NCBI RefSeq assembly: GCF_018977255.1
Contig: NW_024704742.1
Coordinates: forward strand, 109,866,001-109,930,000
Source: Callorhinchus milii
Lineage: Eukaryota
Length of the DNA stretch: 64,000 bases
Direction of reading: 5' to 3'
Positions 1-46,478 of the stretch are shown here, one piece after another (positions within the stretch are counted from its first letter, which is position 1; each line of letters begins with the position of its first letter). Made by a program: the position numbers and the translations under genes. The notes under the pieces were generated by a model. The model searched no databases, had not been told where the DNA came from, and saw nothing but the letters and a program-made list of their open reading frames with translations.

Positions 1-169
1 AAACTGCTGATTTATTGACTGTTGAAGTGGTTTAGATATGCTTTTCATGCTTTAAATTAAACACTTCCTCAAATATGCTGTACTGTCCATCCATCTACTC
101 ACCAGAAAGTATTGGAACTCTCTAAGTTGTATTTATATTAATTTATCTTTGTTTTTTCTTAACTTACAG

Positions 170-289
170 AATAATAGCACTCCAGAAGAGCACACACTGT
201 ATGTCTGGGATCACTTTATTTCCAAATCTTCTGTCAAGAATGTAGTATTTGTTGCCCACAGTTATGGTGGACTGGTATTTGTGGAGTTG
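170..289 (+). CDS. FAM172A: FAM172A/ARB2A internal coding exon (120 nt, phase 0/0)
   Basis: Pyrimidine tract and AG at 168-169, GTAAGT donor at 290. Translates [40 protein letters not shown], matching recalled vertebrate FAM172A including the AHSYGG hydrolase-like motif. Confidence 0.95.
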
Positions 290-2637
290 GTAAGTATTTC
301 TTTGTTTTCATTGTCTGTTACAACTCAAATTGTTCTATTTTCTTTACCACGTGGGTGCACATCAAACATATACCTCTCTATTCAGAGAATTCCAGAACTT
401 TACCACTCATCCAAGGAAGGAAAATCTTTTTTTTAATCAGGGCAAAATATCAGGTGACTGCACTGACTAATTAATATATTTTACTTTGTTAGTAGTATGA
501 AGCTTAATGGTAAAATTGGTCGATAGCAATTAAGTGAAAATGGTGTAAGTCTGTTTTTCTTGCTTTGAATCTGACTGGGATGAATATAAAGTCATCAAAT
601 ATCATATTGTAACGATATTTTATGAATCTGAAATTCAAATTTGGGTACATCATCTGAAAAAGCTTTGTTGTTTTTTGATTAGAATGAATATCTTTCTTTT
701 TGATTAATTACTGACAGTAATGCAAACTTAATTTATATTTTGGGATAGCAGCTGGGATTTCTATCATAGACGATGAAGCATTACTGTAAATGGTGACATC
801 AAGTTTTAAAAAGACAGCAGTTCTTTCTATCTCCATAAAAAATGGAGAAGATCTTTATCCTTTACATTCTTAAAATGCTCTTGCATTATTCCCTTAACGG
901 ACATAGATTTGAAAGTGATTTATTTTTGCTTTCATGCTTTTTGTTATTAAAATCTAGTCAGACACATTTTTAAACTAAACTGATTTAGTTCAGACCGAGT
1001 TTAACCCTTTGGTTAAATTAAATGTGCTATGAAAACTGTTTTAAATGTAGCTAATGTTGAGTTAATAAATGTGAATTTATATGAAGTAAAATAAATTAAA
1101 GCTTACTGTACAGTAATGCTGTTTTTGGGTTTGATAGAAATTAATATAAACAATAGAGAATTACATACTGGTCCATCACAACATTGTGTAGTGGATGTGC
1201 AGCTTACTAAGAAAAGAATATCAAGGAGAAAACGTGTTAGCTTGTTTTATTTATTCTTTGCGCACCAAAAGCTGGTAAAGTGGTGCATAACTAATATGGA
1301 TTTATTTGGATTTAATCCAAACACTTGGATTTATAATTGTTCTTGCTTCCCAAAAAAATTAGAAGAGGAATGTGCAATGTCTTGTGTTTGTAATAAGAAA
1401 TATTATTAATTTTTGAACAGAAAAGTAAGGTGTTTCAGCAGAAAAGTTGATATGTATGATTCAGATTTAGTGATGCATTTTGTGAATTTTTCATGGAGTG
1501 TAATTGTGTCACCAACTGCAGTTTTGAAATAGACTATGAGCTGATTGACCTTTAGACGGTGAAGTAGTGGTGCATTCTATGGATATGGTAAATGATGTTT
1601 GCCCTCAGACCAAACAATTACAAGTCTTCCCACCTAAAGACATAAATGAAGGGTCGTGGATGACCACTGTGACATTCCTTCTGTCTATGTCTCTCATCAC
1701 ACTGGTGGATATTTTTTCCTCCTTTGTTCTGTGTTACTATAATGCATCCAGATGTCTCAGGGTAAGACTTGACATCTGACCTTGGGGCTTTAGGGTGAAG
1801 GTGCCCCCTGAGCCTGTGAATTTATCCCAGGCTGGGCTAAAGTCTTCCACAAGGCATTTTGGTCTTGGTGCAGGAAGTAACCAGTAAGTAAGAAATTACA
1901 AGGGTGCTTTGTCAGGAAAAGAAGATAGTAGGAGGAGCAAGTTCTGAAGACTGCTTACACTGCAGGAGCTGAATGCATGAACGGCATGACATAATACATC
2001 CATGGGCACATCTAATATCTGTCACAAAGAAACCAGAACTTTTAAAAAAAAAACTGACATTGATGTATCATTATGACTTTGCAATAACGGGTGTGACAAT
2101 TAATCATTTTGGAACAGAGTATCTGTTTCCCTTCAGTATACATCGTGTGACTCCAAAGAGCTTTGGAATTGTTTAATATACTTTTTTTGTTGTGTATGTA
2201 TCACAGTTTATCTATAGGCTTCTATGTTTTCTGAAGCAAACATATTTGCTTTTTTGTATGCTGAGCATACAAATATTAATTTCTATTAATATTTTTAAGG
2301 TTTAAATTTAGATTTTGTTTAGAATGAACATTCTTTACAGTTTGGGATTTGTTTTGTAACTCCCATCAAAAAGGTACCATCTACTATATGTTATACAAAT
2401 TATCTTAATGGGAGGTTGTCTTTGTATCTATTTTATCTGTAGGTCCCTTCCCTATTTTGTAAAAATGCAGTTGCGAGATTTTATAGAATGGAACACACCA
2501 TTCTCATAGTTATATTAGGGAAAGCAGGGTTAAGGCTATTGTGCCATCAGTCTGAATAATTAATGGTGGATTTTCTTTCCAAGGCTACTTTTGAGGAAAA
2601 AGCATAAACCAGCACTGCTATACATTTTTTATGAGAA

Positions 2638-2790
2638 ACAACAACAACAACAAAATTCCATTTATAGAGCGCTTTTCACATCGGGAGGACGTCCCAAGGC
2701 GCTGGACAGTTGGGTCAGGACCCGAGCAGGGGGAAATGGTCAGGGTGAGGGGAGGGAAGGGAGGGAGCGAGGAGGGGGTAGAGAGTCGAG
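2638..2790 (-). mobile_element. L2 LINE 3' end fragment with (TTG)n tail
   Basis: Reverse complement of the 3'UTR and tail of the L2 at 10745-11339; near-identical to 20244-20410. Confidence 0.85.
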
Positions 2791-2875
2791 AAACATCCTT
2801 TTGCTAAACACAATAATTTGTGAGCTGCTTGTGTGCTTTATGTCTTGCAAAATGGCAAAATCCTTGCACAGCATA

Positions 2876-3138
2876 ATTATAATAATAATAATAATAATAA
2901 TCCTTGCATTTGATATAGCGCTTTTCACGTCGGGAGGACGTCCCAAAGCGCTTCACAGAACACACTGTAAAGTGAATTGACTGTATATTTGTGGGCGAAC
3001 GCGGCAGCCAATTGCGCACAGCAATGTCCCACAAACAGTCGTAGATTGAAAATGACCAATTTAATTATTGTTTTTGGTTTTTTGGAGGGATTATTATAAG
3101 GCGTGTGGAGTAAGGAAACTTGCCCAAGGTTTCGCCCT
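2876..3138 (-). mobile_element. tRNA-derived SINE with L2-like tail and (ATT)n, 5'-truncated, short subfamily
   Basis: Near-identical to 45607-45915. Confidence 0.85.
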
Positions 3139-4362
3139 GTTAGTCATGGTAGCACACTGTTCAGGGGTATAGTGTGTTGAACATCAAATCTGTGTTCAAG
3201 AAGATTATTAAAATTTTGATATTTTATTGATATTACAGCAGGAAATCTATGTACTGTAGTTTTAAAAACATCAAGTCTCCATATTAATTATGCAAAGTTA
3301 CACTGCAATAAAGATAGATTTTGTAATAAAGAAAAATAGAAACACTATACTGTAGTTCTTCATATTGCTCCCAATGTGTTTGAAAAGAGAAGGGTATTTC
3401 TCCTGATCTCTTGGCCAACAGTCCATTACATTTTTAAAAAATGATCATTGACTTCATGTGTGTTTGTGGGACATTACTGTAGCGTTTGCCTACAAATACA
3501 CAGTTACCAAACTTTACAGAAACCTCTGTGAAGTGCTTCGAGAAGTTTTGATGTCAGAAAGCACAAATTCAGATGTAAGAGTTAAAAAGAGTTTCTGTTT
3601 TTGTTACCCATATACATAGAAAATTATGGAATAGTTATAGTATGCATTCCAACCAGCCCAGGTCTGTTGTTGAATAGTTGCTTGAAGTTGATTAAGCTAT
3701 CATACAGACTTGTCAACATCACAACTCCTTAGCATTTGGCTTTGCTTTGCTACTTCAGTTGAAAACGAAAGTCTGGGATGTGTTGAAGAAATCATTCCTG
3801 AATCTGTGATGCCTTTCTCCCTAAGAATAAAGAGAAGATAGAATTATGGCCCGATTCACGTAGTTATTTTGAAATAAAATGATGATGCAACAGATGTCAT
3901 ATTTTTGATACCAGCCAGGGAAATTATTTAGATCTTGAATCCATGCATGATAACAAATGTAATAATTCCTGTAATAAATAAGTTAGATTATAAATCAGTG
4001 AGTTTTATTCCGTGATTTAATCAGACTGCAGTAATTCAAATGAATTCTAGGTACCTAAACATTTGAGATGACATTAAGGAAAATGAGTGTTACGTTTTCT
4101 AAAAGTGTAATATATTTTGATATATCCCAACTGCACACCATATATGCAAACTGCACACCATAAAAAAAACTCCCAGAATGTAATAGTAATATAGTAAAGC
4201 AAATAAAAAAATCTTGAACTAAATAAAATGTTGATATTTCTTGCTGCCTCTTGTGCCTAATGCTTAGTCAAATAAATGGCTAAGCATAGCAAAACAATGG
4301 CAAAAAAAAGAGGCAACAGACACAATGTGTGTCAGAGAGTTACTCACTAGTTTAGCTCAGTT

Positions 4363-6699: not shown

Positions 6700-8068
6700 G
6701 TTGAAACATGCTAAGCGCTTCACAGGACTAAATGTAGAGAGTGATTTTATAGGCAAACACAGCAGCCACTTGCACACAGCAATGTCCCACAAACAACCAA
6801 GAAGTGAATGACCAATTTGTTTAGTCAAGCAAATGAGGAAACCTTTGCTTAAGAGTATCATACTTAAGATTATACAAAACCAAACTGAGTTCCATGCATC
6901 CCACCTATACATGGAAATTCCTCTCCCTGAAGGAACACATCTCGCTTACCCAATTACAGAGAGTATTAAGCGCAGATTTCCTCTGCTTCCAGGGTGCTTA
7001 GCTATAGGTTAGTGTAGACCGGAACCCTCCCTCCCTATGTTTGCACAAACTCACCTCACTGCTTGATCCTGGACTTTTCAAATGGGTCAGAGGAAGCCTC
7101 TCCGCTGCATCCCCAGGAGCTCAAATCCATAAAGGAGGACTGTTTACACACATGTCTTGTATGCCACAAGCTTGACCTGCATTGGGACCTTGCTGTTCTT
7201 GAAGAGAGAAGAGCACGACCAGAATCATGATTCCGCACTTGGGGGCGCTCATCATCATGTCTCACCAGGGTGGCCGAGTGTTCAAGGTAGCAGGTGCTGC
7301 ACAAAAAGTCCCCAGGTAAGTCTGCTAGCAATACAATATTGTCTGCAAACAGAAGCTTGTCAGAAAAGCCTGGAACAGATACACCAAGTCCGTCCCCCTT
7401 AATGTCACCTAAGATGTGATTGATGAATACCTCGAACAGGCCAGCCTTGCCTTTCCTCCCTTTCAAGAGGGATGGGTTTGGTGAGTCCACCGTTGACCCT
7501 TACACAGATCTTGAGGCTGCAATACATATTCCGGATAAAATTCAAGATTTGGCCTTGTATTTTCATGGCTTCCAGTTTCATCATGAGAGGTTCAGGAGGC
7601 ACTAAGTCGAAAGCCTTGTAGAAGTCGTGAACGCAACATAGATACATTTTCCTTTAGACTTACGACATTTTGTGAAGTCATCTAAAGCTAAAACCTATCT
7701 GTCACAATACTCATGAAAATGGAAGCCAGCCTGTTTCTTGCTGATCAAACCACGAGCTTCCAATGCGTGCAATACAAGTGCAGTGACTACCCGAAGCATG
7801 ACTTTAACAGCCACTGAAATCAATCCAATTCTTCTGTAGCTTTCGGTCTCACTACGGTCACCATTCACCCTTGTAGATAGTAACCAGAATTGCACTCTGG
7901 AAAACTGATGGAATGCGGGAATAGTTGGCCAGAACAGACACCAGGAGAAACTCTTTTCGAACAGTACTTATGGGTACTTTAAAGTCTACCTGAACAAGCG
8001 ATGATCTAATGACAGCACATCCAACAACGCAGCACTCCCCAACACTACCCTGGAGTGTCAGCCTGAAC
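6700..8068 (-). mobile_element. DeuSINE split into two parts (about 6700-6820 and 7922-8068) by the RT element
   Basis: The 3' half (GCAGCCACTTGCACACAGCAATGTCCCACAAAC) and 5' half (TTGGCCAGAACAGACACCAGGAGAAACTC...GGAGTGTCAGCCTG) are collinear with the copy at 11985-12313. Confidence 0.7.
6820..7920 (-). mobile_element. Degraded non-LTR retrotransposon reverse transcriptase, not CR1/L2 (RTE/RTEX-like, clade uncertain), with its 3'UTR
   Basis: Frameshifted RT motifs SYRRIGLISVAVKV, KQAGF, DFYKAFDLVP, ER-RQG, LFEVFIN and LLFADNIVLLAD across ORFs 7695-7895, 7405-7647 and 7056-7490. The 3' 150 nt match the end of family X. Confidence 0.85.
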
Positions 8069-9383
8069 TGTTGTAATATCACTGAATCCAAATCAAGGGT
8101 GTGTTAGTAAGCCGCTTTATTCTAAAAAATCCACCATTATAAACCACACATCCTGTCTCACTCATAGTGTACTGTGCTTCATACCCTTCTTATTATTAGT
8201 CCTTTTGTTAATTGTTAATTTACTCTTAAAGGAGTATCCAACAATTGTGAGCTTGATGTCCTTGATATCAGGATGACAATACAGAGACCGCAAGCAAAAC
8301 ATTTTCCAAACCAATTCAACCCTTTTGAATAGTAGTCAGCAGAATACCGAGGCAAGACCTGGATACAATCGATTGTTCAGTCCATTAAGCTTGGCAACCG
8401 TTTTATTGTGCTACTTGGCATTGGCTAAGGTTAAAAAGGTATCAAATAGAAGCTCCACCACAGTACTTTTTTAATGTGTCAGACTCTTCTGGAGAAGTTC
8501 AGAGTGCAGTTAAAATGTAATCAGATAAGATAAAAGGTATACTGCAGAAATCAGTCAACAGTATCGAGTGTTGTAAGGTTATGAACAAAATACCAAGACA
8601 CAATAACAGTAACATTTGAAAAATATTATGAAATCAGCATATGTTAAAGCAAACAGTGATTCTGTCAGTTTACTATCCTTTTGACTGATTACTACAGTCA
8701 GACTCTGCCAACGTTGCCATGGGAGTTAATTTGAAACCAGACCAATACTAACATGGTTTATTTTTACTTGGCTCTGTACTGTACAAAGCCATTTTCTTTT
8801 CTTTTCAGACAGTTGCTTTATTTGTGATATATGCTTTTTGCCCACTGGAACCACCTATTGTGCAGAATGAACCAAATCACAAAGGATTCATCATTGCATA
8901 TTTACTGACTGTGACTGATACAGCTGTAAGATCTTATCCAATCCCATTGATCTATTGCGCATGTTCACTCCCTTGGTTACCAAAATGTGCATCTGTTTGC
9001 ATAAAGCCCTGGGCAAGGTTCTTTTTCACATTGATTGGCCCGTCCACAGGAGGCTGATGGGTTCTTGCATTGATCAATGCATTTTACCAGACAGTCATGT
9101 TAAATTTTGATTAGTTAAAACTGAAAGAATAATTTGTGATATGTTTTCATACTTTGCTGTGAATTTATTTATAATCTACTGAGCAGTCAAGTCAAGGCTG
9201 GTTATGATCACAAGAAAATGGAAGAAAAGCTAATAGAGGATCTTTGATCATGTGCCATTCTTCATGAATTTTGGCCTCAAACAATGTTTAGTAATTTGTC
9301 GTTTCTTAATTTTGAACTGTTATTTAAATAACTAGAATAAGAGTCCATAGAAGTTAGAAAATCCAATCTATAGTTTGCTTTAT

Positions 9384-9495: not shown

Positions 9496-9696
9496 TATTT
9501 TGTTATTTAGCTTCTGAATTTTTTTTAATTTAGTTATTTAGCATTGGTTTACATACAAATCTAACACTGCATTTCCAGATCAAGAAAAGCTTTCCAAACA
9601 GATACATGTAGCCTTAAATAAAAGTGTTTTATAAATCATTGTAAACCCGATAACTCTTCCATACAAATTATTGTAAAACCGGTAATTCTCATTTGT

Positions 9697-9985
9697 TGTA
9701 AGTGGGATCTTTTTGGAACATAAGGTGATGTGCTTGGAATCAAGGCGATCCTTATGTGTGGCAGTTTTAGTAGGTTGGTTTCTGAGCCAGGCAGGTCCAC
9801 AGTACTCCAAGGCACTGATGATGACAGACTAGTCAGCAGCCTGGCTCGTCAGCAGGATTTGAAGGTTGGCCATAGTTGGACAAACAGCGGGAAGTTTGCC
9901 AGTCAGTGCTCGCTGTTTTAGATAGTTAAACTCCAGCAGTCCACCAACACACACACTCCGGTCCTTTAGCCTTGCCAACCTGGGT
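9697..9985 (+). repeat. Family X copy, internally deleted
   Basis: Shares TTCTGAGCCAGGCAGGTCCACAGTACTCCAAGGCA, AAGTTTGCCAGTCAG, GTTAAACTCCAGCAG and CTTGCCAACCTG with 19320-19770. Confidence 0.8.
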
Positions 9986-10606
9986 TTAATAGTATAACAC
10001 ACAAACTTATCCTCACATAAAAAGAAAATGTTTTTCCCCCAGGTTAGACTTTTTTGTAGTTTTTAATGTTTCAGTTACAGTAGAGATCTAATTATCCTCA
10101 CTAATTGAAACCAGTCCATTGCAGATAAGCAAATAGTCTGAATAATTGGACATAATATAAAATACCAATCGGCTACAGTGCTAACTAAAAAATTGTTCCA
10201 TTAGGAGTTGTACTATCATTATACGATACTTTGGAAATATTAGTGGCATCCAATCAAAAACATTATTCCCCCCTTTGGATCCAGCCTTAGGTAATTTTGC
10301 TCACTTCTATTTACAAATATTGCTGCTAATTCATGCCAGTACCTGCTTTGAAACTAAGAGTGCTGTACGTGTATTTGTAGCAGGATAGAGCCGTTCACAT
10401 GCTGGACAATCATAGTTGCTGTCTCCAATGTCTTATCATAATCAGTGCATTGAAAATTAAAGGTTTAGGTTTACAGAGTTTTCCAAAGGCCACTAACACC
10501 AGCAAATGAATAGAAATAAAAACTATACTTGAGAGCTGTGTAAAGAGTATTGAAGTGATTCTACAATATCTGACATAACTAAAAGGCCTAAGCTAAATAC
10601 AATCTA

Positions 10607-14037: not shown

Positions 14038-14689
14038 CTTGGAAGCTTCAGTCTGGCTTCACCTGATCAATATGATTTAATATTTATATACTTCAGTGGG
14101 GTTCCGTAACCACCTCACAAGACTGTAAAGTCTATAGACTGGGATAATTCTTCTTTTGTATCTTTATTATATTGCAAGTGTAGCAGGAGCTTGATTAATT
14201 GTGCTCTTATCAATTACCACACGGGCACCACTCTGCCCATCTCAGGGCCTGCTCCTCTCACCATGCCACTCTGCTCATTCAAAAATCAGACAATCAGAAC
14301 GTAAGCTGAAACAAGCAGAGAACAAACAAAGTTATAAAGATTTTAAATGGTACTTGTAATGAGTTTGCGCATTTTCTTCAGAAGCATGAAACTGAACCAA
14401 AGAAAAATGCATTTTGTGTTCAAATTGTGTACATTGTGTAAGAGATAACATTCAAAGTCTAAAGTACCACTTTTATATGAAGGTCTGTGGTGGTTAACCT
14501 TTGTATCAAAATTATTTAACTTTTTTTCATTATTGGAAACATTTGTAATTACAGGAATCTGGGAGCACGGTTTTTCACTAATTTCAATTATTCACACAGG
14601 CAGGAGTAGCACAGTGGGAGTAGCTTTCTATGGCAGGAAATGTATGTGTTCTATATCTTTTTTAATGAAATATCAGAATCAAATCAATC

Positions 14690-15133
14690 CTTTTGGCCAT
14701 GTCAGTAGTCTGGTTCCTGAGCCAGTCAATTCTGCAGTGCTCCAAAGCACTGTTGATGACAGGCTAGCCAGCCTGGCTAGTCGCAAGATTTGGAGAGGCA
14801 CAATAGTCAACGGGCAGATATTCTTTCCACTTGGCTCATGTTAACCTGCAAGCCAAGCCCAAACCAGTAAAGCAGCAGGAATGTGTAGTTTTCGCTGGTT
14901 AAACTCCAGCAGGAACCTGAAGCCACCCTCTGAAGTCCCCAAGCCTTCCCTACTTACACCTAATATATTTTGGAATTAGATAAGCGAAGTATGATTCTGT
15001 GGGGAGAGTATTCCATTCCAGAGAAATTTCTGTGTATAAGTGGCAATCATATTTGGAGTTCTCAGTTTGGTTTGGATACTCTTAATTATGGTGATGAATT
15101 CTCATGAATCAGACACCCAGCAGACCTAAAAAA
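14690..15133 (+). repeat. Family X copy including the 3' terminus
   Basis: GGTTCCTGAGCCAG...GTTTGGATACTCTTAA...TCAGACACCCAGCAGACC followed by an A tract. Confidence 0.8.
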
Positions 15134-15219
15134 ATATATTTTTTATGTACTAGTAATCAAAACTGAAAACGTTTTCTAATTTGGGTCTGACTTATGCATT
15201 GTAAAGCTTCAGTAGATTA

Positions 15220-15920: not shown

Positions 15921-16395
15921 TATTTTGGTTAGCCGAGGTATATGATGCACTTGGAAACCTATCACTGTGCTTAAATGTCGTTAAACCAATCTACTAAGAG
16001 CTACACATATGTATATTATTTTAAAAAGATATATAAGAAAGCATTAATCAAACCACTAAGAGTTACACTTATGCTCTGTGAGGCACTCCATGTCCATGCG
16101 CTCCATGTCCCCCACCCTGCCCACTCCACCATCGGCAGTCATTCCTTTAGCTCTCTGCCACTACCTTCTGGAACTACATCCCAGAACCCTTCAGCTTGCC
16201 CCTCCCTTGCCTCCATCAAGGCCCATCTCAAGATCTTCCTCTTCGACCGGGCTTTCGGTCATCTTCCCACCCCACCCCCCTTTTAGGCTATGTTTTGTGG
16301 GGTTATCTGCAGCTGGGTGAAAAATTCCAACTCCCAGTGACAGGCTTGCTCTTCTAACACCTACCAGCAAGCCAGGATAGCTGGTCCATCAAGAC
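15921..16395 (-). repeat. Fragmented family X copy (3' end 15921-15975, body 16315-16395) with an L2 fragment (+, about 16085-16290) between the parts
   Basis: Reverse complements read TTAAGCACAGTGATAGGTTTCC...CTCGGCTAACCAAAA and CTGTCACTGGGAG; the L2 part has CCATCAAGGCCCATCTCAAGATCTTCCTCTTCGACC. Confidence 0.6.
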
Positions 16396-16660: not shown

Positions 16661-19319
16661 TACATTTTCACATAATACATAGCATAGCAACTTTAGTTAT
16701 ACTCAACTCCAGGGTCCTCTTTGCACAATATAGCATGCTTTTCAAACTGCTTAAGCAAATTGATATAACTTCTTGAAAGGTTCTCTCCCTCATTTTTTTC
16801 TGTACTGCGTTTTATCATTTATTCTCCTATTAATTGATTTATTCAACTATTTGGGAGAATGTTCAAGCGGAATTTAATACTTATTTTACGTACTTGGCAT
16901 TATTGTTTTAAAAGTAGTCCATTTACCCTCAACAAATATAATTCAGCAATATTTCTCAGTTAATTTCCTTTATTTTTTATTTCATTCCTTTGAAGATTTA
17001 CCTTTCAAAATAACATTCCTTTGTCATATACTTCATTCTATATTGGGTCGCTATGGAATCAATATCCACACTGATACACTCTCCCAGTGTAGTTAAACTT
17101 CTTCTACAGTCACTTAGATCATTGATTTTACAAGGTTAATTATGTCCTGGTGCAACTCTTCAGAAAGATTCTGGCTACTCATGGCACAACTAGGCATTAT
17201 CTTAATCTTCAATTCTGTTTGAAAACCATTTAATTCTGTAACTAAAAATGCTTTTAATTCATTTTTAAATAGTAATTTAATTTTAGCCTTGCACATCAGT
17301 GGGTATGTTAAAAAAAACTAATTCAACAGTTTTGTAAATTTCTTTCATTAAGAAGTAATGTAGAGTGCTTTGGAACAGTATGTTGAATTTACATTTCATA
17401 CTCCCATAAACACGCTTAGAGCTGAGGAATGCTGTAGGCATATGTAAAGCATTGTGTAGCACTACAAGTTTTTTAATGTTAGTATGTCCTTATGTATGAA
17501 TTTTATTCAGTTTTCCAGGTAATGTTATTGGCTACTCTTAAAGGGAAAACATATGAGAATGTTTTAAAATTTGAAATTCCACAAATATAATTGTTGCTTT
17601 GAGTTTGCTGGGACTTCAAGACATCCTGGACATTATGAAGATAGATTTGTTTTTGCACAAATTAATACCCGCTTACTCGGTAAAGGCTTGCACTGTGCTT
17701 TATTTTGAAGTTAATTTTACTCAGCTTTAGAAAAAATGCAATCCTTCTCGGTGTAGTGTATACTCCATTGGGTTGTTCTTAAGAGTGCTGAAAAAGAAAG
17801 GAAGGAGAGGGAAACAAAATTCTCTAAATCCCAAATGGTAATATATTTGGACGTGTGCGATCTTTGGAGTATTATTGGGATTTGGGAATGTAAGATAGTA
17901 TTATTATGCAGTCCAACTCTCATTTTATTCCCCTCATTCTGATACAATAATTAGATTTTTTTTTTAAAAAATCATTTTTATAGATCATCTCAGAGCTGTG
18001 AAGGCTGGGTAGAGTTCATTTCAGAAGGGTATCAAAAGTTCTGTTCCTAGACTGCTAACAACGTCCCCCTATCCCAATATCAGAAAGAGTAATTCTCATC
18101 CAATTCTGCCTTCCCACTGCAATATCACAATAAAGTCTCCACATGAAACAGCTTACCTCAGTAACTGACATCTAAACCTTTATTTTCCACATAGCAATTC
18201 AGTACTCCAGTGTTCCATATCTGTGCTGCTTCCAGAACTTGAATTTTGTGGTTGGAAAAAGCAATTATTGCACTTGTTTTAATAACATGTACAAGTTAAA
18301 AGAAGCTATTCTAGCTGTCTCTACAATTGATGTTAGATTCCCAGATGTTTCTGCATTTTACTTTTTTCATAGCAAGTTTTAGTTCTAGTATTTCCTCTGA
18401 GTTTCCTTCAGCCTTAAGTATTCCTATTACCACAATCATTTCAGGGTGAGAATGTAACCGCATCTCCCAGACGAGAGCATATCATATTTCCTTCATGGAA
18501 GAGTAGTTTACCTTTCTACTACTCAACCTTTTGTAGAGGTAAAATGTAAATGTGAAGAATTGCTATTGGTACATACAATTTGTGTTTGATCTATGGTGTA
18601 CATTTTGAAATATTATCATGAATAACATACAGTATTTGAGCACTATTTTCTAGTTCTGCAGTGGTCTTTTACTCTCTTCTACCACAGAATACTAGTCATG
18701 CATTACGATATGGATGGAACAGTGAAGTGCAATTGAGATAAGAATGAGCTGTTCCAAGTCATACTGTACATGTCATATTGGATTAAGAGTCACAGCAGTG
18801 TACTCACAGGATACAAAATATATGGACGGAATTGCATCTTAAACTCTTTGGGTCATACAAGTTATGGCAGCAAAGAATGTTGTTGTTGCACTATTGTATT
18901 TTGTCAGTACTATTGTATTTTGTCATTGTTAATCAAATTTATTCCTTAAAACTAACAGTAATGAAGTCTCCATGCTATTCTCCCAAATTATTTGAGTCAC
19001 AAACCTGCATTTATTAACAAGGGAAGCTTGTATCCAATAGGAATGCTTGTCCAATCAAATTTGAATTATCTGCATCTAAATTACTAAATTTTGAGAACCA
19101 AAGATCTGGAACAAGAAATACAATAATAATAATAACAATAATCCTTGCATTTGATATAACGCCTGTCATATCTTTGCAATGTCTCAAAGCGCTTTAAGAT
19201 GTCTTAGTTTCCTCAGGCCTCTGTACATTTAATCAGTTTTATAAGAGAACCTCTGATCAGACCATTAGTTTCTTTAAATCAAGGTATCTTTCTGCAAATG
19301 TTACGTAAACATACCTTTT

Positions 19320-19770
19320 GCTATCCTCCTTGCGCGAGGGAGGTAAGTGGGGTCTCCTTGGAGCTGAACTGGCTCCAAGGTGACATGCCTGGCAATGGAA
19401 TGTCGGAATTGAGCCCTCTGTGGCAGTCTCGGTAGTCCGGTTCCTGAGCCAGGCGGGTCTGCAGTACTCCAAGGCAGTAATAATGACAGCACAGCCAGCT
19501 TGGCTCATCGGCCGGGATCTGGAAGGGCAGACCAGTCACTGGGAGCAGGGAATCATCCCACTCAGCTCCTGTTAAGCCTGCCCTAACGGGTAAGGTGGTC
19601 CTAACTGAACAAGCAGCAGGAAAGTTTGCCAGACAGCAATATCAATGGCAAGCTATTCGATTTTAGCTCAGCAGTACCCCAACGCACAGTCTGGGGTCCC
19701 CGAGCCTTTGCTCTTGCCAACCTGCACTTAATCCTTTTTGGAAGCATGGTAATAGGCTGACCAAAAAAAA
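19320..19770 (+). repeat. Family X, best-preserved 5' body
   Basis: GC-rich; hairpin CCTTGGAGC-TGAACTG-GCTCCAAGG; ends AAGCATGGTAATAGGCTGACC(A)n. Confidence 0.85.
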
Positions 19771-20243
19771 ACTTTTGCATCCATGACACTTTCTGCAGCT
19801 AATTTAATGGGAATGTTTATTTAAAGTCAGTGTTTTGGGACATCCTCCTGATGTGAAACGCACTATACAAATGTAATTTTTTGTTTGTTGTATTGTATAA
19901 CTCAAAACTGACTATTGAAGTGAAAAATCAAATAATAAGAGGTTTTGACATACCCTTGGCTAGAAATCAGTGGAAGTGCTTTGGTGACCTGCAGCAAAAC
20001 ATTTTTGAAACTTCTAAATCTTATGCAAAAAAGTAATTTGCAACCTGCAGAGTCTTTGAAATAAATAAATAATCAATAAATAAATAAAGTGTTGTGTTGT
20101 TTTAGCTAATCAGTCCGTAGGGTATTATTTTTCTTTTACTGTAATATTTATAAATCAATACACTGACATTTTTATTTCAGATATGAGTAGTTAAAGCACA
20201 GAACGTTTTTATATATGAAAAAATATATTCTAAACATCTATAT

Positions 20244-20719: not shown

Positions 20720-21035
20720 ATAATAATAATAATAATAATAATCCTGGCATTTTATATAGCGCTTTTCACGTCTTCTAGACGTCTCAAAACGCTTTACAGA
20801 ATATGCTATAAAGTGAATTGACTGTATATTTGTGGGTGAAACGCGGCAGCCAGCAGCAGTGTCCCACAAACAGTCGTGGATTGAAAATGATTAATTTATT
20901 ATTGCTTTGTTTTGGAGGGATTATTATTAGGCGCATAGAGTAAGGAAACCTGCCCAAGGTTTCGCCCTGCCTGGCATTGAACCCAGGTGTCTCGTTTGCA
21001 AGGCGAGCACTCTAACCACTGAGCTACAAGACTCC
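20720..21035 (-). mobile_element. Full-length tRNA-derived SINE, short subfamily
   Basis: Head (CTCTAACCACTGAGCTACA on the + strand) and (AAT)n tail. Confidence 0.9.
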
Positions 21036-24300: not shown

Positions 24301-25019
24301 ATAAAGCAAGGTGTGTCTGAATGGACCTCAGGAGAAGATTAGGCTTGGTTGTGATGTCCCCGTAGTCAAATCACCTGCAGATTGAATAAAGTTCTGGAGG
24401 GCATTGGCACCTTTGCAACCATACCCTAGAGGGAGGAAAGCACAATGAAACTACCTTAATGAAAGCAGGGAGAACATTTTGCAAGAAAAATAATCCTACC
24501 TTTTTTAGATTCCAATAGGGACTAATTTACAGTATTTCTTAAATGTTAGAATTATCATCAATTTCATTCTGGAAATAGACTTCATGGAGCGCAGTTCCAA
24601 ACATGTGTTGACTTGAAGTAAGTACTTCTGGACACCAATTCTTTTTTGAGGAATTCTATAAAAAATTACTGCTAAATTAGACTCCAGTGTTAGCGGCAAA
24701 TCTATCTGCTCAATCGCTTTTTGTATTTTTTCTGTCCAAGTATATTGCCCTTCAGAAAGTAAAACTCACCAATTTCTTCTGTTTAATTACATTATGCCAA
24801 ACAATTGCACAGTTTAATTTTTTAGTTTTTCAAAGTGATTTTTTCAACCTTCCCCTTACTTTTGTTCCCACCAAGGATCTCACTGAGCCTGGTAGACAAG
24901 ATGCTTTCAAACCTCTGCATTTGCCCCCATTCAATTGTTGTTCACAATGATTTGACTAAGACTAGCAATTCTATGTATGAGGTATGTGCACATAAATCTG
25001 TTTATTATCTGTTTCAGAC

Positions 25020-25897
25020 ACACGGAATTTTCTACGTGTAGGTGGTACACATATGTCTGGTTTGGATACTCTTAAGCATGGTAATGCTGTGACAGATCAA
25101 TCTACTGTGTGTAAAAAAACATACTCAATGATTTCCAAAGTATTCACGTTCAGGTGTCGGTTTATTTAGATTAAGATGCTCCATGGCCATTGTCCCAAAG
25201 ACAACAATGGCCATATTTGTTCACACTGAAAATGTATTGAGTCCTTTGAACCTCCCTGAAACCTGAAACAATGATTTGTTAAGTTCAAAGGCCTTTTTGC
25301 CAAGTTTGGGCCGACCTCCAAAACTGTTTATTTGGAGACGCCTTTGGGGGAACAGCAGCAGATCTGAAGGTCAGAACAAGATAGAGAGTGAGAGAGAGAG
25401 ACCTTTTTAAAAAGAGAGCGAGACCTGCCTGACTGTTTTTGTACTGTGAAGAAATTGTACCATTTTGCTAAGCAAAACAAATTGTTGGTAAAACCTTCCA
25501 TTTTTTCTATATTTGTTTAATTCTTTAATTTGCTGATTTAAAGTTTCTGTATGTTCAAATACGTTGATAGCATTCAGAATTAAAATCTTATTCTTTAATT
25601 GGAAAAGATGCTGGTGTGATTGCTGATATATTTCCATCCTGATTTTGTGGAGGCTAGAGCAATTTCTTGGTGTTTTATTGTCAGCCCAGGTTAGTCTGAG
25701 TTTGATTGTTTGAGTTTACGTAATCAGTCCATGCTGCAAAATAAGCTCAAAAGGAGCAAAGCCAGGTGCAGCTGAAATTTGTAGTAACCGAGAAAGGGCC
25801 TACAGAGGTCATTCGATAAGAGACAAGCCAGACAATCTCAAATTCGTGACAGATGGGTTTTCGTATGTGTCAGACACCCGGCTGACCAAAAAAAAAT
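25020..25897 (+). repeat. Family X 3' end split by an insertion (parts about 25020-25087 and 25852-25897)
   Basis: GGTTTGGATACTCTTAAGCATGGT resumes after the insert as GATGGGTTTTCGTATGTGTCAGACACCCGGCTGACC(A)n. Confidence 0.8.
25088..25851. mobile_element. Probable solo LTR (764 bp)
   Basis: Begins TGTGAC and ends GTGACA (TG...CA, imperfect inverted ends); cleanly interrupts a family X copy; flanks AATGC/GATGG could be a decayed 5-bp TSD. Confidence 0.6.
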
Positions 25898-30625: not shown

Positions 30626-31967
30626 AAAAAATCACCACATTAGTTAATTTGTTGTTACAGTTGTTACAAAATTTGATGATAATAATAATCTAGTTATTTG
30701 ACATGGCGCCTTTCACATTAGGAGTAAACAATAAAGACCTTCTCAAAGGTCTTTACTGTTTACTGTAAAGTGGAGTGATGCATAGGGCCGAAGGGGAAAA
30801 CTACTGTCACATATTTGTTTTTTGGGGGGATTTGAAATCGGAGGATGTTTTACAAACATCCTTTTTATAATAAAAATATAAGTTATCATTATAGGTAATT
30901 TATTGTCAATACAATATGTTAGGGTCCTGAGATTGAGTTGTTAGAGTAGAACTTTTTATTGCATTGGTATTTACAGGGATACTCGTAGACTTCTCTGCAC
31001 TCTCTATTTCATTGTTGAAATAATGGAGCAGGTGCACTGTTGTCAGTTAAGGAATCCCCTTAGAGTGTCACTCACTGTATAATATTGACATCATTGTGAC
31101 TGGTCTGCTCAGGAATCAATTGTGGGCTGGCATTTCCTCATTTCCACTGAGTATTGCACTTGAGTGACACCTGCTCACGTATTTGCACAACAAAATGGAG
31201 TATGTGGATTTTCAGAAAATACGTTAAATTCATTGAACCAGTGTTACTTTACATAATTAAAAGATGAGCACTTTATACAGAGTTGCATTGTGTTTATATT
31301 TAAAATCCTAGCAAGTGGTTTTCCATCACAGAATTTATTATTAGTTGTGAGGTAAATGCTATTTCTATCATTTAAAGGACTAGGTGTGGATTTGGCCGTC
31401 ATCATGTGGTTAATTGGAATTTATGTTTACATTAATACTTAGATTGGTTAGATATGTCAGGTCTGACTGACTGCTTGCTGTGCACAAGAAAGATCTTTGT
31501 CTGTGTTGTCAATTCTCTTAGTATGTTTGACCGTCATGTTTGAGCTCAGTCTGAATTGTAGATGTTGGAATATGCATGTATAGCAAGATGCCATGTCAAC
31601 ACACCAATATGGCTCATCTCCACAGTTCTCCAAGTGACAATTTCCCTATTTTGACTCATCTGACAGCGAGGTGCTGACCTTCATGAGACTTTATGCTTCT
31701 CTGCATTGAGACAGGGAAGGCCATCCTATCACTCCTGAAACTTAACTTTTGGAATGTACAGAGGCCTCTAAGCAGGTCATAAAACCTCTTTCAGGCTACA
31801 CATAGCATGTGAAGGTGAGAAGCCATTTAAAAAAGAATGGAAGAATGAGGAAAATCAGACAGAAATAGACATTTTGGGTCAGGTAAAATGTATTCATATA
31901 GTATTCTGTTATCTTTTAAAGCTACTTTGTCTAAAAAAATATAAACTAATTATTATTAGAAAAAGAC

Positions 31968-32516
31968 ATGCTGGTGACTAACTTCCTTGGGTGGAGATAA
32001 GCAGGGTCTCCTTGGAGCTGAACTTGGAGGTGACATGCTTGGCAACAGAATGTCAGCATCAAGCCAACCCTCTGTGGCAGGGCACCGTTGTTGACAGCTG
32101 AGATAGCCTGACTCATTGGCAGGATTTGGAAGCTCAGACCAGTCACCGAGGGTAGGGATTCTTCTCACCTTCTGCAAGCTAAAGCCCTAATGGATAGGGT
32201 GGTCCTCGCTGAATCAGCAGTGGGAAAGCTTGCCAGTCAATGCTCTCAATGGCAAGCTATACAGTTTTAGCTAGTTAGACGCCAGCAGTAACCCCAACGT
32301 ACACTCTGGGGCCCCAAGCCTTGGCTCTTGTGAACCTGCACCTTATACTGTTGGAATTAGGTAAGGAGGATGTGTCCCTCCAGTGAGAGAGTGCACATTC
32401 CATTCCAATAAATATCTTTGGAATTTTCATTTATCGGTGATACGCATGAAACTCTCAGTCGAGTTCGGATACTCTTAAGCATAGGTTTCTGCATATGTCA
32501 AACACCTGGCTGACCC
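31968..32516 (+). repeat. Family X, near full-length copy (about 550 nt)
   Basis: From GCTGGTGACTAACTTCC...GGGTCTCCTTGGAGCTGAACT to GGATACTCTTAAGC...GTCAAACACCTGGCTGACC. Confidence 0.85.
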
Positions 32517-33424
32517 CCCACCCCCAATAAAATCAATCAAAAATGCCTTTAGAAAGACAGTTAACTTACTTAAGTCATATTGTCTTGCTTTAGAATACAG
32601 ACCAGCTTCTTGCACACTTACAAATAGCTGACTTCAATAACATCAATTTGTTATCAAAATCAACCTAATGAGTAATGACCCAGGAGTTGGCTTTCTTTTT
32701 TAGCACAGGAAGCCTGCTGGTTTTCTGAAAGCATGCGCGGTGAATGCAGAAACACTGACCAGGGATCATGTTCATTTATAACTCTGTTGGGATTTTATGG
32801 ACCACAACTGAAGAGTTATTATGGAGTTCTGCTGTTTTGAAGGATTTGGATAAACCTCATTTGTAAACACTTACATGTATGAAAAATCTTGATATTTGGG
32901 AGTATATTTAATAAATAAACTAAAACATGTGACAAACATTTTTGTAACTGATCTATTCTAAATTCTGAACATTTAAGAATGACTTTTCGTCAGAACAGCT
33001 TTAATTTCTAAGCCACTTATTGTTTACTACTTTACATTGGGATAGATAAAATATAAAAATATTTTAGAATGTAGTTGGGGGGTACTATATTAAAAAAAAA
33101 CGATATGATTCACACGTCAACTTTCACATGAGCATGAGAGATGTGATTCATTATTTATTAGTAATACACCACCAATATAATTAAAACACCAAATATGTCA
33201 TGAAGCATGAATATACTCCTATGGGTATATTACATTGGGGGCCAAAACCGTGATCTTCGCAACCAGCAATCACAGCAAATATTGAAAGCTGCCAGTAATT
33301 GGATGGGGGGAGGGGGTGCTCCATAGCTGGAAAAGCTTTAGAGGATTGAAAAGGTTTGAATGACATATCTTTTACCTTCACTAGTTCAGCTTCCCTTCCC
33401 CCCCACCCCTACCCCCCCACCCCC

Positions 33425-33869: not shown

Positions 33870-35537
33870 TAGTGCTAAGTTTTTTGCATCAGTCTTTACC
33901 AAGGAGGAGACGGTAACCTATCTGATCTGGAAAAAGAACTCAGGGATGTCGCAGAGAAAAGTTGGAACACTATTCATATCACTGCCAGCATGGTTGCCAA
34001 ACAGCTGTGTAAACTTAAGGTAAATAATTCTCAGGGGCCGGATAAATTGCATCCGAGGATCCTTAAGGAACTAAGGGAGGAAGTCGCAGAGATGCTGGCA
34101 CAAATCTTTCAAAAATCACTGAATACTGGAGAGGTGCCAGGGGACTGGAGAAAGGCAGATGTTACTCCTATTTTTAAGAATGGTAACAAAAGTGACCCAA
34201 GAAACAACAGACTAGTAAGTTTGACATCCATTGTGGGTAAAATTATGGAGACTCTTATTAAAGATAAATTCCTGGAGGTTCTGGACAGAAATAAAATCAT
34301 AAATGATAGCCAATATGGATTCATGAAGGGAAGGTCTTGCCAATCTAATTTACTGGTTTTCTATGGCAGTGTGGTAAGGGAGCTTGATAAGAGAAACAAT
34401 GTTGTATATCTGGATTTCAGTAAGGCCTTCGAAACAGTTTCTCTTGAGAGGCTGGTAGTGAAAGTAAAGAAAGAGGGGATCAGTGGAGGTATATTACAAT
34501 GGATACGCAATTGGTTGACCGGAAGAACCCAGAGGATGGTGGTACAGGGAATGTCACCAGACTGGGAAAATGTAACCAGTGGAGTTCCACAAAGGGTCTG
34601 TTTTGGAACCTCTTTTGTTTAATAATTTTTATAAATGATCTGGAACTAGGAGTCGCAAGCACAGTGGCTAAGTTTTCAGATGCCACCAACCTAATGAAGC
34701 TGGTAGATTGCGAAGCCTAACAAGATAGGTTACATGGGGATTTTAACATATTTGGTAATTGGGCAGATCGATGACAAATGAAATTCAATGTGGAGAAATG
34801 TAATGTACTTCACATGGGAACAAAAAATCCTGAAAGGGACTATTATTTGAACGAAAGGAAAATAATATGTATGGAAAATGAAAGGGACCTGGGGGTCCTG
34901 ATTGACAATAAATTGGAGCTCTCCCAACAATGCTCCGGGTCAGTGAGTAAAGCAAACCAGATGTTGGGATGTATCAAAAGAACGATAGCAAGCCTAAATA
35001 TTGGGGTAATCCTGCTACTGTATAAATCATTGGTGAGACCATACAATTCTGGTCACCACAGTACAAAAAGCATATTGGAGAAATCGAGAAGATACAGAGG
35101 AGAACAACCAAAATGATTGAGGGAATGGAAGGACTGGACTATGAGGAGTGACTAAATAAATTGGGCATGTTCACACTGGAAAAGAGAAGATTGAAAGGCA
35201 ACATGATTACTGTCTTTAAGATGCTAAAAGGGCAAGACAATATAGATCTTGACAGGCTGTTTCAACTTGTCCAGAATAGTAAAACCAGAGCACACGGCCT
35301 GCGATTGAAAGAGGGGAAATTCAGAACAAATCTACGCAAACACTATTTCAGTGAGCGAATAGTGAACCTGTGGAACCTGTTGAAGCAGGTTGAAGCAGGA
35401 AGTGTTGATTCTTTCAAACACAGAAATAACATTATGGGATATAGGTAGTTTGGGACATCTGTGCATGCGACCGCCAGGAAGGTGGAAGGCGAACTAGATG
35501 GACCTTGGGCTTTTTTCATGTAGCATTTCTTATGTAC
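33870..35537 (+). mobile_element. CR1 LINE, 5'-truncated, with decayed RT and 3'UTR
   Basis: GPDKLHPRILKEL, QYGFMKGRSCQSNL, YLDFSKAF, SGVPQ, degenerate KFSDA, FNVEKCNVLH, FSERIVNLWN; multiple stops and frameshifts. Confidence 0.95.
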
Positions 35538-38024: not shown

Positions 38025-38669
38025 GTAAGACTTCAATGTTGGTCTCAATGTTATCAATGTTTAAGATACGAAATTAATTAACCTTAGAGACAAGATTTTT
38101 TTTCCGTCAGCAATTCCTGTCTTGGAATCAAACAAGTCTTGTATTGTCAATGCGACACAGTGTGAATCTGAGCAACAAATAGAAGTGTAATACAGTCCGA
38201 TGTAGTTTTACATTAGACAACTTTGGAACCGTTTTAAGGATATGATAAGTTAATTGCAATTTCCGAAGACTCACTTGCCAATTTCTAACTCATAACTATG
38301 ACCTCAATTTGTATTCTGGATTTTCTGATGAAATATTCCCAGTAACAGTTTCACTTGAAGAGAACCATCTAACATAAAATAAATGGTGGAATAATACATA
38401 CTTGTAACATTTTAATTTCTTAGAGGCACTTTCTTCATGAAAAATATCTATCAAACTAATTGTTTGAAAAGGGATGCAGCAGAGCCGTCTGTTAATTTCA
38501 TCATATTAGGCTACATTCCGATTCATCATTCTCATATTTATCATTCTGATAGACTGGCTGACTGTCTAGTAATAGAATATCAGAATCAAGTTGATCCTCT
38601 TTGGCAATCTCAGTAAACAACAACAACTTGCATTTATATAGCGCCATTACCGCGGGTAACAAATCAGAA

Positions 38670-39120
38670 CTCAGTAGTCCCATTCCTGAGCCAGGCAGGA
38701 CTGCAGTGTTCCATGCAACTAGCTCATTGGCAGAACTTGGAGGAGCAGCAACAACAACAACTTACATTTATGTAGCGCCCCTCAAGCAGGGCAGGGTCCC
38801 AGAGCCCTTAATCCTTACTCCCAAAGCAGAACAGTCATGGGCAAGGACACATCCCACCTGCAAGCCAAAGCCATAATGGATAGGGTCCTAGCAGGACAAG
38901 TAGCGGAAAAGGTTCCAGGTGAATTGGTTTTTGATGGTTAAATTCCAGCAGTAACCTAGTGCATGCTCAGAGGTCCGCTAACCTTAACTCTTGCCAACCT
39001 TCACCTGATACATTCTGGAATTAGGTAAATGGGGTGCATCACTCCTGCGAGAGAGTGCAACACTTCTTTTCAAACAAAGGGAAATTTCCATACATAAGTG
39101 GAACTCTCAGTCTGGTTTTG
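38670..39120 (+). repeat. Family X copy, diverged, with a (CAA)n L2-tail fragment at about 38748-38780
   Basis: TTCCTGAGCCAGGCAGGACTGCAGT, CTCTTGCCAACCT, GGAATTAGGTAA, GGAACTCTCAGTCTGGTT. Confidence 0.75.
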
Positions 39121-39346
39121 TTGTCACTTGGTTACGTCCTTTTCAGAGAGCAAAGTGGGAGAGAATAGTGGTTAAAAAGGAGTTTTAATTATCTTTCTAC
39201 ATACAACCATTTGTCTCAGGTACTATTTATGTACACATATTATTTGGATCCGTTTTATATTTTGTTTCTGTCAGACTTCTTTTTCAGCTATTGTCTGTAT
39301 TCAGGGTGCAACAAATAATATCCTATTGCTATCTTAAATTAGTATA

Positions 39347-39650
39347 ATAATAAATAATAGTCCTTGCATTTGATATAGCGCCTTCACAGAATATACTGTA
39401 AAGTGAATTGACTGTATATTCTGTGGGCGAAATGTGAATTGAAGTGACCAATTACTTATTTTTTTTGAAGGATTTATTACCCCTGGAAAAGCGATCCGCC
39501 AATTATCTAGCAACCGGGTTCCTACTTACTGCTAGGTAAACAGAGGCATGTAGAGTAAGGAAACTTACCCAATATTTCGCCCTGCCGGGAATCAAAACCA
39601 GGTCTCTCGCTTGCGAGGCCAGTGCTCTAACCACTGAGCTACAATACTCC
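39347..39650 (-). mobile_element. tRNA-derived SINE, long subfamily, with internal deletions
   Basis: Head, GTTCCTACTTACTGCTAGGTAAACAGAGG segment and AAT tail. Confidence 0.85.
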
Positions 39651-41340: not shown

Positions 41341-42828
41341 GACATCCTCTCTGTCTGTGACCAGGGCTCCTTCTGCCTCCTCGTCCTCCTGGACCTCTCT
41401 GCTGCGTTCGACAGTCTACCACACCATCCTCCTCCACCACCTCTCCTCCCTCATCCACCTAAGTGGGACCGCACTCGCATGGTTCAAGTCCTACTTTCTC
41501 TTTGACCGAGCCTTCAGCTCCCCTCTCGACTCTCTTCTCCCTCCTTGCTCCCTCCTTTCCCTCCCCTCACCCTGACCATTTCCCCCCTCCTCGCACCCTC
41601 CCTTCCCTCCCCTCATCCTGACCATTTCCCCCCTCCTCGCTCCCTCCCTTCCCTCCCCTCACCCTGACCATTTCCCCCTGCTCGGGTCCTGACCCAACTG
41701 TGCAGCGCCTTGGGACGTCCTCCTGACGTGAAAGGCGCTTTATAAATGGAATCTTGTTGTTGTTGTTGTTGTACTAAACCAACGGCCTTGGCTTCATCTC
41801 GGCAAATGGTTTCTCCTCCTGCTCCCGCTCGGTCACCTATGGGGTACCCCAGAGCTCCATCCTTGGACCTCTTCTTTTTCTCATCTATATGCTCCCTCTG
41901 GGCGATGTCATCTGCAGACACGGGGTAAACTTCCACATGTATGTGGATGACACACAAATCTACTTTGCTTCCTCCAGCTGTGACTCCAGGTCTGCTGATG
42001 TTCTATTAGCTTGTCTAGCAGACATTTAGGCCTGGATGAGTGCAAAATTCCTGCAGCTGAATGTGGACAAGACGGAAGTCACACTCTGGCTTCCGTCAAC
42101 ATCTTCACTCCTGCAGATCTGAACTCCTCATCCTCTCTTAGGTCTCCCTCACAATTACTGAAAAATCTAGGTGCTTGGTTTGACCCCCACCTTCTTTCCC
42201 CACATCCAGTCCCTGTCCAGGACCGCCTTCTTCCATTTCCGCCACATTGCCTGCCTCCGACCGTACCTTACCCCAAATGCAGCCAAAACCCTCCCACCTG
42301 GATTACTCAAATGCACTCCTCGCCAGTCTCCCCAGCTCCACTATTCAAAAAATCCTGCTTATTCAGAACCCCCATCTCACCAGTTCTGGCCAGGCTCCAC
42401 TGGCTTCCCATTACCAAACGGGTCGACTTCAAGATCCTCAAACTCGTGTTCAAATCCCTTCGCTCTCTGGCAGCTGCCTCTTGCCTACCTCTCTGACTTC
42501 CTCACTCCCAAATCCACCATCCGGCGCCTCCACTCGACTGGCACAGGCCTCCTGCCTGTCCCTCACACCCTCTGTCCTACCAGAACTCTGGAACACTCCC
42601 CCTCAATCCATCCGCCTTGCCCCTTCTCTCCCTTTTTCAAGTCCTGCCTGAAAACGTTTCTTTCGAACGTGGGTACGGTCACTCACCCCCACCCGCGCTC
42701 CCTCCCCCCACCATCTTGGTGTCAGGCTCCATCACTGTTAAGCGCTCTGAGACGCTACCCTGTGTGGAGGGCGGTATACAAGGGCAAGTTGTTGAATACC
42801 AAATTTAAGGATTATTATTAATAATAAA
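41341..42828 (+). mobile_element. Older L2 RT remnant with a nested younger L2 3' end (41496-41771)
   Basis: LLDLSAAFD, HMYVDDTQIY and LHWLPITKRVDFKIL motifs; the nested insert is flanked by TACT (41492-41495 and 41772-41775). Confidence 0.9.
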
Positions 42829-45606: not shown

Positions 45607-45915
45607 AATAATAATAATAATCCTTGCATTTGATATAGCGCTTTTCACGTCGAGAGGACGTCCCAAAGCGCTTCACAGAACACACTGTAAAGTGAATTGA
45701 CTGTATATTTGTAGGCGAACGCGGCAGCCAATTGCGCACAGCAATGTCCCACAAACAGTCGTAGATTGAAAATGACCAATTTATTATTGTTTTTTTGGAG
45801 GGATTATTATTAGGCGTGTGGAGTAAGGAAACTTGCCCAAGGTTTCGCCCTGCCAGGAATTGAACCCAGGTGTCTCGCTTGCAAAGCGAGTGCTCTAACC
45901 ACTGAGCTACAGGAC
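45607..45915 (-). mobile_element. Full-length young tRNA-derived SINE, short subfamily
   Basis: Intact A and B boxes and (AAT)n tail; near-identical to 2876-3138. Confidence 0.9.
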
Positions 45916-46094
45916 AGTAAATTAGATAATGTGTTATCTAATTTACTGGTGTATTTTATTTTGGTCACCTGGGAAACCTATCATCATGCTTATGAGTATC
46001 CAAAACAGACTGAGAGTTTCACATATGTTATTCACCTACCTACGGAAATTTCCCTGTGCTTGGGATGGAATATGCATTCTGAATCTCTTGAGGA

Positions 46095-46478
46095 ATTCAC
46101 CCTGTTTACCTAATTCCTGAGAGTAATAGGCACAAGTTGGCAAGAGCCATGCCTATGGCCTCCAGAGTATGCTTTGAGGCACTGTTGGATTTATTGATGA
46201 GAGCACTGTCTAGCAAACTTCCTACTGCTTGTCCACCTAGTACAACTCTACCCATTAGGTTTTGAGCTCGCAGAACAAATCGGAACTGAGTGGGAAGGAT
46301 CCTTGTAACAGTTCCTTGGAGCTTTGTCTCACTCAGAAACTGGATTACCAAGTCCACCACAGAGGATTGACTCAATTCCGACATTCTGTTGCCAAGTACG
46401 CTACCTTGGAGCCAGTTCAGCTCCAAGGGGTCCCTACTTACTTCCCCTTTCCCCCCAGGAGAAAAGTCACCAGTATGC
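46095..46478 (-). repeat. Family X copy
   Basis: Contains CCTTGGAGCCAGTTCAGCTCCAAGG (same hairpin) and TTACCTAATTCC. Confidence 0.8.

Follow-up and report, generated by a model that had tools for sequence, protein, structure and literature searches.

The 64,000-nt window, the whole stretch of DNA that was analyzed, is repeat-rich with a GC content of ~37% and contains CR1 and L2 elements, tRNA-headed SINEs and a SINE family that we take to be of the DeuSINE type from its core sequence and tRNA-like head. Together with a match to an elephant-shark protein, these repeats suggest a cartilaginous fish as the source. Near 7 kb, one copy of the DeuSINE-type family is split by a LINE fragment that carries a reverse transcriptase (RT) and ends in a tail common to an abundant repeat, family X. 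The features of this locus are as follows.

6713–6818, minus strand: interrupted SINE, 3′ half, SINE profile positions 292–403 (E = 2.3 × 10−20)
6819–7936, minus strand: whole insertion, a 5′-truncated and internally deleted LINE copy, delimited by the joints of uninterrupted SINE paralogues
6819–6977, minus strand: late 3′ UTR and short A-rich tail, corresponding to family X from position 427 onward; contains a small local duplication
6983–7304, minus strand: end of the RT and thumb region, breaking off at profile position ~1028 (profile match and reading by eye)
7305–7925, minus strand: RT core spread over three reading frames and covering profile positions ~645–856, with stops and with FADN at the catalytic motif
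7937–8070, minus strand: interrupted DeuSINE-type SINE, 5′ half, SINE profile positions 112 to ~290 (nhmmer, E = 4.4 × 10−21)

The flanks correspond to positions 112–294 and 292–403 of a profile built from the other SINE copies of the window, and the two halves meet at position ~292 around one block. In each of the four runs, contigs of uninterrupted SINE paralogues pass directly from 6818 to 7937. The flank match and these joints show that 6819–7936 entered as one insertion and postdates the SINE copy that it splits, as an earlier note on this DNA had proposed. No target-site duplication was seen at 6819/7936 among the repeat families shown (the five largest of 13). The AP endonuclease is absent from this 5′-truncated copy.

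A six-frame profile search resolved the RT into collinear minus-strand pieces (7865–7629, 7644–7438, 7439–7317 and 7236–7045) scoring 15–63 bits, the last of which matched profile positions 940–1002 with 29.9 bits; the remainder of 6983–7304 was assigned by visual comparison with the profile and with the copy at 57.8 kb. Together with phmmer, this search recovered the frameshifted minus-strand RT that had been described before, including the peptides then quoted. The copy is broken by frameshifts and stops, has an internal gap of about 50 codons near 7225 and is dead, since its catalytic motif reads FADN. Pfam RVT_1 matched one of five RT pieces (E = 2.4 × 10−4), under the Pfam cut-off. A phmmer search with the window RT retrieved 226 proteins at E ≤ 0.001 (best 2 × 10−15), and a word-indexed search with the read-through RT frame returned none of 2,144 candidates. 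No relative was found in viral contigs (0 of 191). Searches of the ESM Atlas gave unnamed RT clusters only and those of the PDB gave L1 and R2 only, the latter being uninformative for the clade.

Two IQ-TREE phylogenies placed the window RT in a clade of single-ORF endonuclease–RT–CCHC LINEs with support of 100/99 and 100/100, apart from the CR1/L2-like, L1-like and DUF6451-bearing rows; the clade rows had been collected from this RT outward, which favors its placement among them. The trees comprised 66 and 64 of 115 rows after near-duplicates and surplus clade rows were removed by hand, two rows lacked the anchor motif and the group names are our own. Within the clade, the window RT sits on a long branch without a supported sister. 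Its profile scores agree with the trees: 213 bits against the clade and 74–135 bits against six other groups, among them the CR1/L2-like profile (102 bits), the DUF6451-bearing RTE (113 bits) and one separate group that we presume to be animal RTEX-like (108 bits). The RT is thus set apart from CR1 and L2, as the earlier note had it, although an approximately unbiased (AU) test on a short alignment did not reject its union with CR1/L2 (P = 0.146). The alternative label then offered, RTE, does not hold in the strict sense: the RTE rows form a separate branch and score far lower than the clade, while their union with the window RT was likewise not rejected (P = 0.0525). Deceiver and Inkcap, both named in the available text of PMC4427930, and Vingi were other candidate groups considered for this RT.

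The clade set consists of proteins P0002–P0151 and loci L001, L005 and L081–L086, and its members are 39–45% identical to the window RT, the closest reaching 45% over 195 columns. The best relatives are single proteins of ~1,200–1,500 aa, mostly encoded on contigs of 4–5.5 kb; each shows one ORF of that length, and an upstream ORF1 could lie beyond the contig ends. An AP endonuclease is present in 13 of the 15 relatives scanned, and a terminal CCHC in 116 of the 128 relatives of at least 600 aa; no CCHC was seen in the LINE fragments of the window. DUF6451, a marker of RTE, was found in none of the same number of relatives scanned (0/15), and the clade differs from the DUF6451-bearing RTE also by its terminal CCHC. 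The RTE clade is not known to have a C-terminal zinc knuckle. Elements of the RTEX (RTE-X) clade have a separate ORF1 upstream. The relatives are mostly metagenomic, with few named hosts: the fern Adiantum nelumboides, the chytrid Batrachochytrium salamandrivorans and one nematode-labeled contig.

Two side observations concern these loci. L081–L117 are LINE elements, some of them full-length, that lie inside bacterial and archaeal genome bins; the bin labels most likely reflect eukaryotic contamination. In L001, L002 and L005, 5′-side sequence was seen by eye to recur near or after the poly(A), which suggests tandem insertion or long terminal duplications.

Elsewhere in the window, a second fragment of the same LINE and nine copies or partial copies of family X were located.

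57750–57950, minus strand: second fragment of the same LINE, continuing the ORF past the 6983 break point, profile positions 1017–1068
9690–9993, plus strand: family X, 3′ part lost or deleted
14653–15137, plus strand: family X, with the motif B hairpin at 14894–14911
15924–16392, minus strand: family X, split by an L2 piece at 16100–16271 (E = 1.3 × 10−7 and 0.27)
19307–19770, plus strand: family X with an internal deletion, poly(A) and a candidate target-site duplication, as well as a 9-bp hairpin (19356–19380)
25011–25125, plus strand: family X, short 3′-end copy (E = 6.6 × 10−7)
25854–25895, plus strand: family X, possible very short 3′-end copy, weak (E = 1.2)
31964–32518, plus strand: family X with ORF C terminus, 3′ UTR, motifs A and B (32170–32295) and A-rich end
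38556–39140, plus strand: family X with two short younger insertions inside; motifs A and B at 38855–38958
45955–46480, minus strand: family X, the highest-scoring match to the clade C-terminal protein profile across the window

L2-type pieces of later date lie within the X copies at 38556 and 16392. The candidate target-site duplication of the 19307–19770 copy (19307–19321/19764–19778) is decayed. A-rich ends are found both in X copies and at ~6820. The window also holds decayed CR1 RT and L2 RT copies at 33975–35041 (plus strand), 59220–60850 and 41341–42440 (plus strand), the first two of which served as in-window controls, and five tRNA-like SINE heads (45845–45916, 63941–64000, 51421–51492, 39577–39648 and 20962–21033).

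The tail of the RT copy belongs to family X. When a family X profile of 602 positions was made from six other copies, with the 6819–7936 locus left out, it matched 6977–6835 at positions 427–582 with E = 3.5 × 10−17, which bears out the claim that RT copy and family X have this tail in common; the X copies cited in its support, at 32335–32516 and 14950–15133, were correctly located. In pairwise alignments, the tail is only moderately similar to X copies (identities of 76% over 58 nt, 63% over 131 nt and 87% over 30 nt), so the tail and X are the same family rather than the same sequence. The tail does not directly follow the true end of the RT gene, a point that the earlier note missed, as the ORF is broken at ~6983, before the C terminus: it stops at profile position ~1028 and the sequence resumes at X position 427. 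By profile positions, about 190 codons and 427 nt (~1 kb) are missing at this join. The second fragment, 57950–57750, has 57 nt in common with the first (82% identity) and extends the ORF in frame as far as profile position 1068. A further short stretch from this region of the LINE lies 400 nt from it in the same frame (58175–58215, minus strand), and the two have a 21-nt exact stretch in common.

The contig pieces listed, 32 of about 54,000, include one identical to the locus that spans 6894–7073 with no differences in two of four runs, and the junction between RT and tail is therefore not an assembly error. Among the paralogous pieces listed, all seven that reach 6980–6988 end there, six of them with at least 36 unaligned letters, and these seven probably repeat few loci across runs. 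No listed piece carries a paralogue across the join, and an unbroken copy running from RT through CCHC to X was not seen in the 64-kb window. The join looks specific to the 6819–7936 copy.

The link between RT and family X was also found away from this locus, in X itself. The 5′ part of X translates as the C terminus of the clade, with LLGG..W..V.RFL followed by a RADA-like motif, as in the relatives. In a frameshift-aware scan, the X consensus scored 22.7 bits against the C-terminal protein profile of the clade, a value reached by none of 500 shuffles (best 17.2), with a profile range chosen after the motif had been spotted by eye; the top peak of the same scan over the window was the X copy at 46480–45955. 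Single X copies gave nothing significant against the clade C terminus by plain profile search, tblastn or hhalign, and a DNA profile of X matched none of 80 loci. X opens within conserved ORF codons and not with a piece of 5′ UTR, the 5′ UTR of the parent being unrecovered. It also lacks the head derived from tRNA, 5S or 7SL by which a SINE is recognized: none of the five tRNA matches in the window falls at an X copy, none appeared in 19250–19800 at a relaxed threshold and no Rfam family, ribozymes included, was found in the X copy stretch searched.

Read from its sequence, family X is the last ~600 nt of the LINE, comprising the final ORF codons and the 3′ UTR, and the RT copy and family X very probably form one LINE family. 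Since X is the 3′ end of the LINE itself, the two are linked by descent and X is not an independent SINE. The earlier note had cast the RT as the mobilizing partner of a non-autonomous family X. The tie between the two stands and is not a matter of chance adjacency; what falls away is X as a separate element that borrowed the 3′ end, because X carries the ORF codons and 3′-UTR motifs of the LINE.

X peptides were also compared with proteins, and one of 3,992 candidates matched: an elephant-shark CSN5 gene model (P0156; E = 4 × 10−8), which ends in an in-frame X copy (residues ~258–363) with 52% and 73% identity to two copies in the window. This copy reflects either exonization or a gene-model artifact. 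It cannot date family X, because the elephant shark may itself be the source of the window.

Two 3′-UTR motifs, A and B, are common to X and the relatives (L001:4230–4500, L005:5273–5365, L081:4377–4512, L082, L083, L086 and L098). An RNA model built from nine relatives and no window sequence ranked X copies first to third among 13 window matches (E = 3.5 × 10−4, 5.7 × 10−4 and 0.21); an earlier four-sequence model had given E = 0.027 and 0.15 on X copies. In 20 loci of other LINE groups, many of which may lack a 3′ UTR, the nine-relative model found nothing below E = 0.89. Motif B, present in 11 of 21 clade loci examined, consists of a T-run followed by a 5-bp stem, usually with a 7-nt loop. 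Across nine relatives and four X copies, with long-loop rows left out, 94% of 65 cells of this hairpin are paired and two-sided changes occur at four of five pairs, compared with at most 54% pairing in slid controls; the structure was defined from the same sequences as were scored. The hairpin lies 141–266 nt from the poly(A) in seven relatives and 232 nt from it in X. T-run hairpins of a similar kind occur in the 3′ UTRs of insect R1-clade elements. Rfam searches of six relatives yielded nothing beyond a weak match to the R2 RNA element over the motif B region of L086 (4494–4599; E = 0.16, below threshold), which is probably due to chance. Neither motif corresponds to an Rfam family or to a description in the literature searched.

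In LINEs as a class, an ORF-encoded protein nicks DNA, primes reverse transcription at the 3′ end of the RNA and often halts early. Judging from the relatives, the intact element would have been ~4.5 kb long, with one ORF of ~1,300 aa encoding AP endonuclease, RT and a C-terminal CCHC, followed by a 3′ UTR that bore the two conserved RNA motifs and by a poly(A). Its protein probably recognized its own RNA through these motifs. Transposition would have proceeded by target-primed reverse transcription from the 3′ end, with most copies halting early and giving rise to family X. Many may have halted near a 9-bp hairpin ~530–550 nt from the end, where the RT could have stalled; this hairpin (19356–19380) is present in both predicted folds of an X copy, while the overall fold of that copy (19312–19765) is no better than shuffles (z = −1.26). 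The 6819–7936 copy would have reached ~2.4 kb, inserted at an A-rich site of the SINE and lost ~1 kb between the thumb region and the late 3′ UTR, bringing the RT next to the tail. No tail-bearing copy between 0.6 and ~2.4 kb was seen in the window, a gap that a discrete master element would explain as well.

Three other explanations were weighed against a single LINE family with X as its tail. An origin of the RT from an ordinary CR1 or L2, now heavily decayed, would agree with the AU test, in which the short alignment did not reject this grouping; both trees, the twofold lower CR1/L2-like score and a tail unrelated to the local L2 and SINE tails make it extremely improbable, and the CR1 of the window behaves in reverse, with 278 bits against the CR1/L2-like profile and 126 against the clade. 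The locus could also be a template-switch chimera or a chance juxtaposition, in which an RT fragment lies beside a short repeat unrelated to it. The abruptness of the join in the middle of the ORF would fit this, as would the lack of a paralogue across it among the pieces listed. We nevertheless regard such an origin as highly unlikely, given that X carries the protein C terminus and 3′-UTR motifs of the clade independently of the 7-kb locus and that the SINE halves fit exactly around one block.

The third explanation concerns how X copies arose. We lean slightly toward their derivation straight from full-length LINE RNA; a lesser but real possibility is that X became a discrete headless non-autonomous element of ~600 nt, a 5′-truncated LINE copy that came under a host promoter and served as a master copied in trans by the parent RT. 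This would keep the pairing of the earlier note, but with an X that stems in its entirety from the LINE. Such an element is conceivable because four of ten tail-bearing copies start within ~25 nt (model positions ~5–28, by eye). Two more start at ~70–80, however, so that the starts spread over ~80 nt. The window holds nine X copies against two ORF-internal fragments, but ordinary 5′ truncation likewise enriches tails. In run X1, at 80% likeness, contig depth is 52,271 in one tail bin versus 7–4,129 in the RT bins; it is sensitive to the threshold, with 340 and 1,074 in neighboring tail bins, and is not copy number. RTE-type LINEs often yield non-autonomous derivatives, yet those described in the available text of PMC7245038 retain part of the 5′ UTR at their 5′ end where X has ORF codons. 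X also has neither a Pol III head nor a known ribozyme. Separately, paralogue depth at 7029–7216 is ~10 times that of RT bins further 5′, which may reflect either the threshold used or a second abundant derivative that carries a deletion.

Among known systems, the unnamed endonuclease–RT–CCHC LINEs resemble the window LINE in RT clade and in thumb and C-terminal motifs, and resemble X in motifs A and B and the poly(A) end; the window copies differ in being all dead fragments and in lying in a vertebrate. RTEX elements have an AP endonuclease and RT as the clade does; the tree contains no labeled RTEX, and the group that we presume to be animal RTEX-like is separate from the clade. In the parts of the sources available, L4, L5 and ALINE are RTEX relics in human (PMC5753468), green-algal RTEX end in short repeats rather than poly(A) (PMC3747384) and Batrachochytrium LINEs are labeled LINE/RTE-X (PMC9926174). 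Chytrid proteins fall inside the clade, and that label is not mapped to these particular proteins. RTE and its bipartite derivatives, as far as PMC7245038 is available, show a single ORF and short elements with the same 3′ end, as here. Sharks and chimaeras have comparable SINE/LINE pairs in the accessible text of PMC3747384, namely HE1/HER1, SINEX-1_CM with CR1-2_CM and SacSINE1 with a CR1-4_DR-like LINE. Like X, these SINEs have a 3′ end in common with a LINE of cartilaginous fish; unlike X, which is headless and has a partner of another clade, they are tRNA-headed with CR1/L2-type partners.

Horizontal transfer, raised in the earlier note, is without support, as the closest relative is only 45% identical. 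The family has many paralogues in its host: in run X1, 16,162 contigs align to the 1.4-kb stretch, SINE flanks included. The portion of PMC9004415 available argues that old vertical inheritance often accounts for LINE clades that are patchy in vertebrates; it also lists an RTE-X fossil as old as the jawed vertebrates. A bolder reading, which we consider unlikely, would make this a deep, formally unnamed LINE clade distinct from RTE and animal RTEX, with a 3′-UTR signal (motif A and the T-run hairpin) retained in fungi, in microbial eukaryotes and in a vertebrate alike, that entered cartilaginous fish by old horizontal transfer and yielded an abundant headless ~600-nt non-autonomous family consisting solely of LINE 3′ end. 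The literature searched, which lay outside Repbase, most subscription papers and supplements, held no description of the clade, the 3′-UTR motif or family X; with this coverage, such absence is weak evidence of novelty.

What the window preserves is an old and inactive LINE family from a lineage that is uncommon, and family X is the tail end of that LINE. An unclassified abundant repeat is now tied to its parent LINE, which is mostly an annotation result. It would be weightier if the clade is unnamed, if it is patchy in vertebrates or if X is truly a headless non-autonomous family. The conserved 3′-UTR signal offers a nucleotide-level marker for decayed copies and a testable candidate for RNA recognition by the RT, and a cartilaginous fish is shown to have once had abundant copies of a lineage met here otherwise in fungi, a fern and metagenomes.
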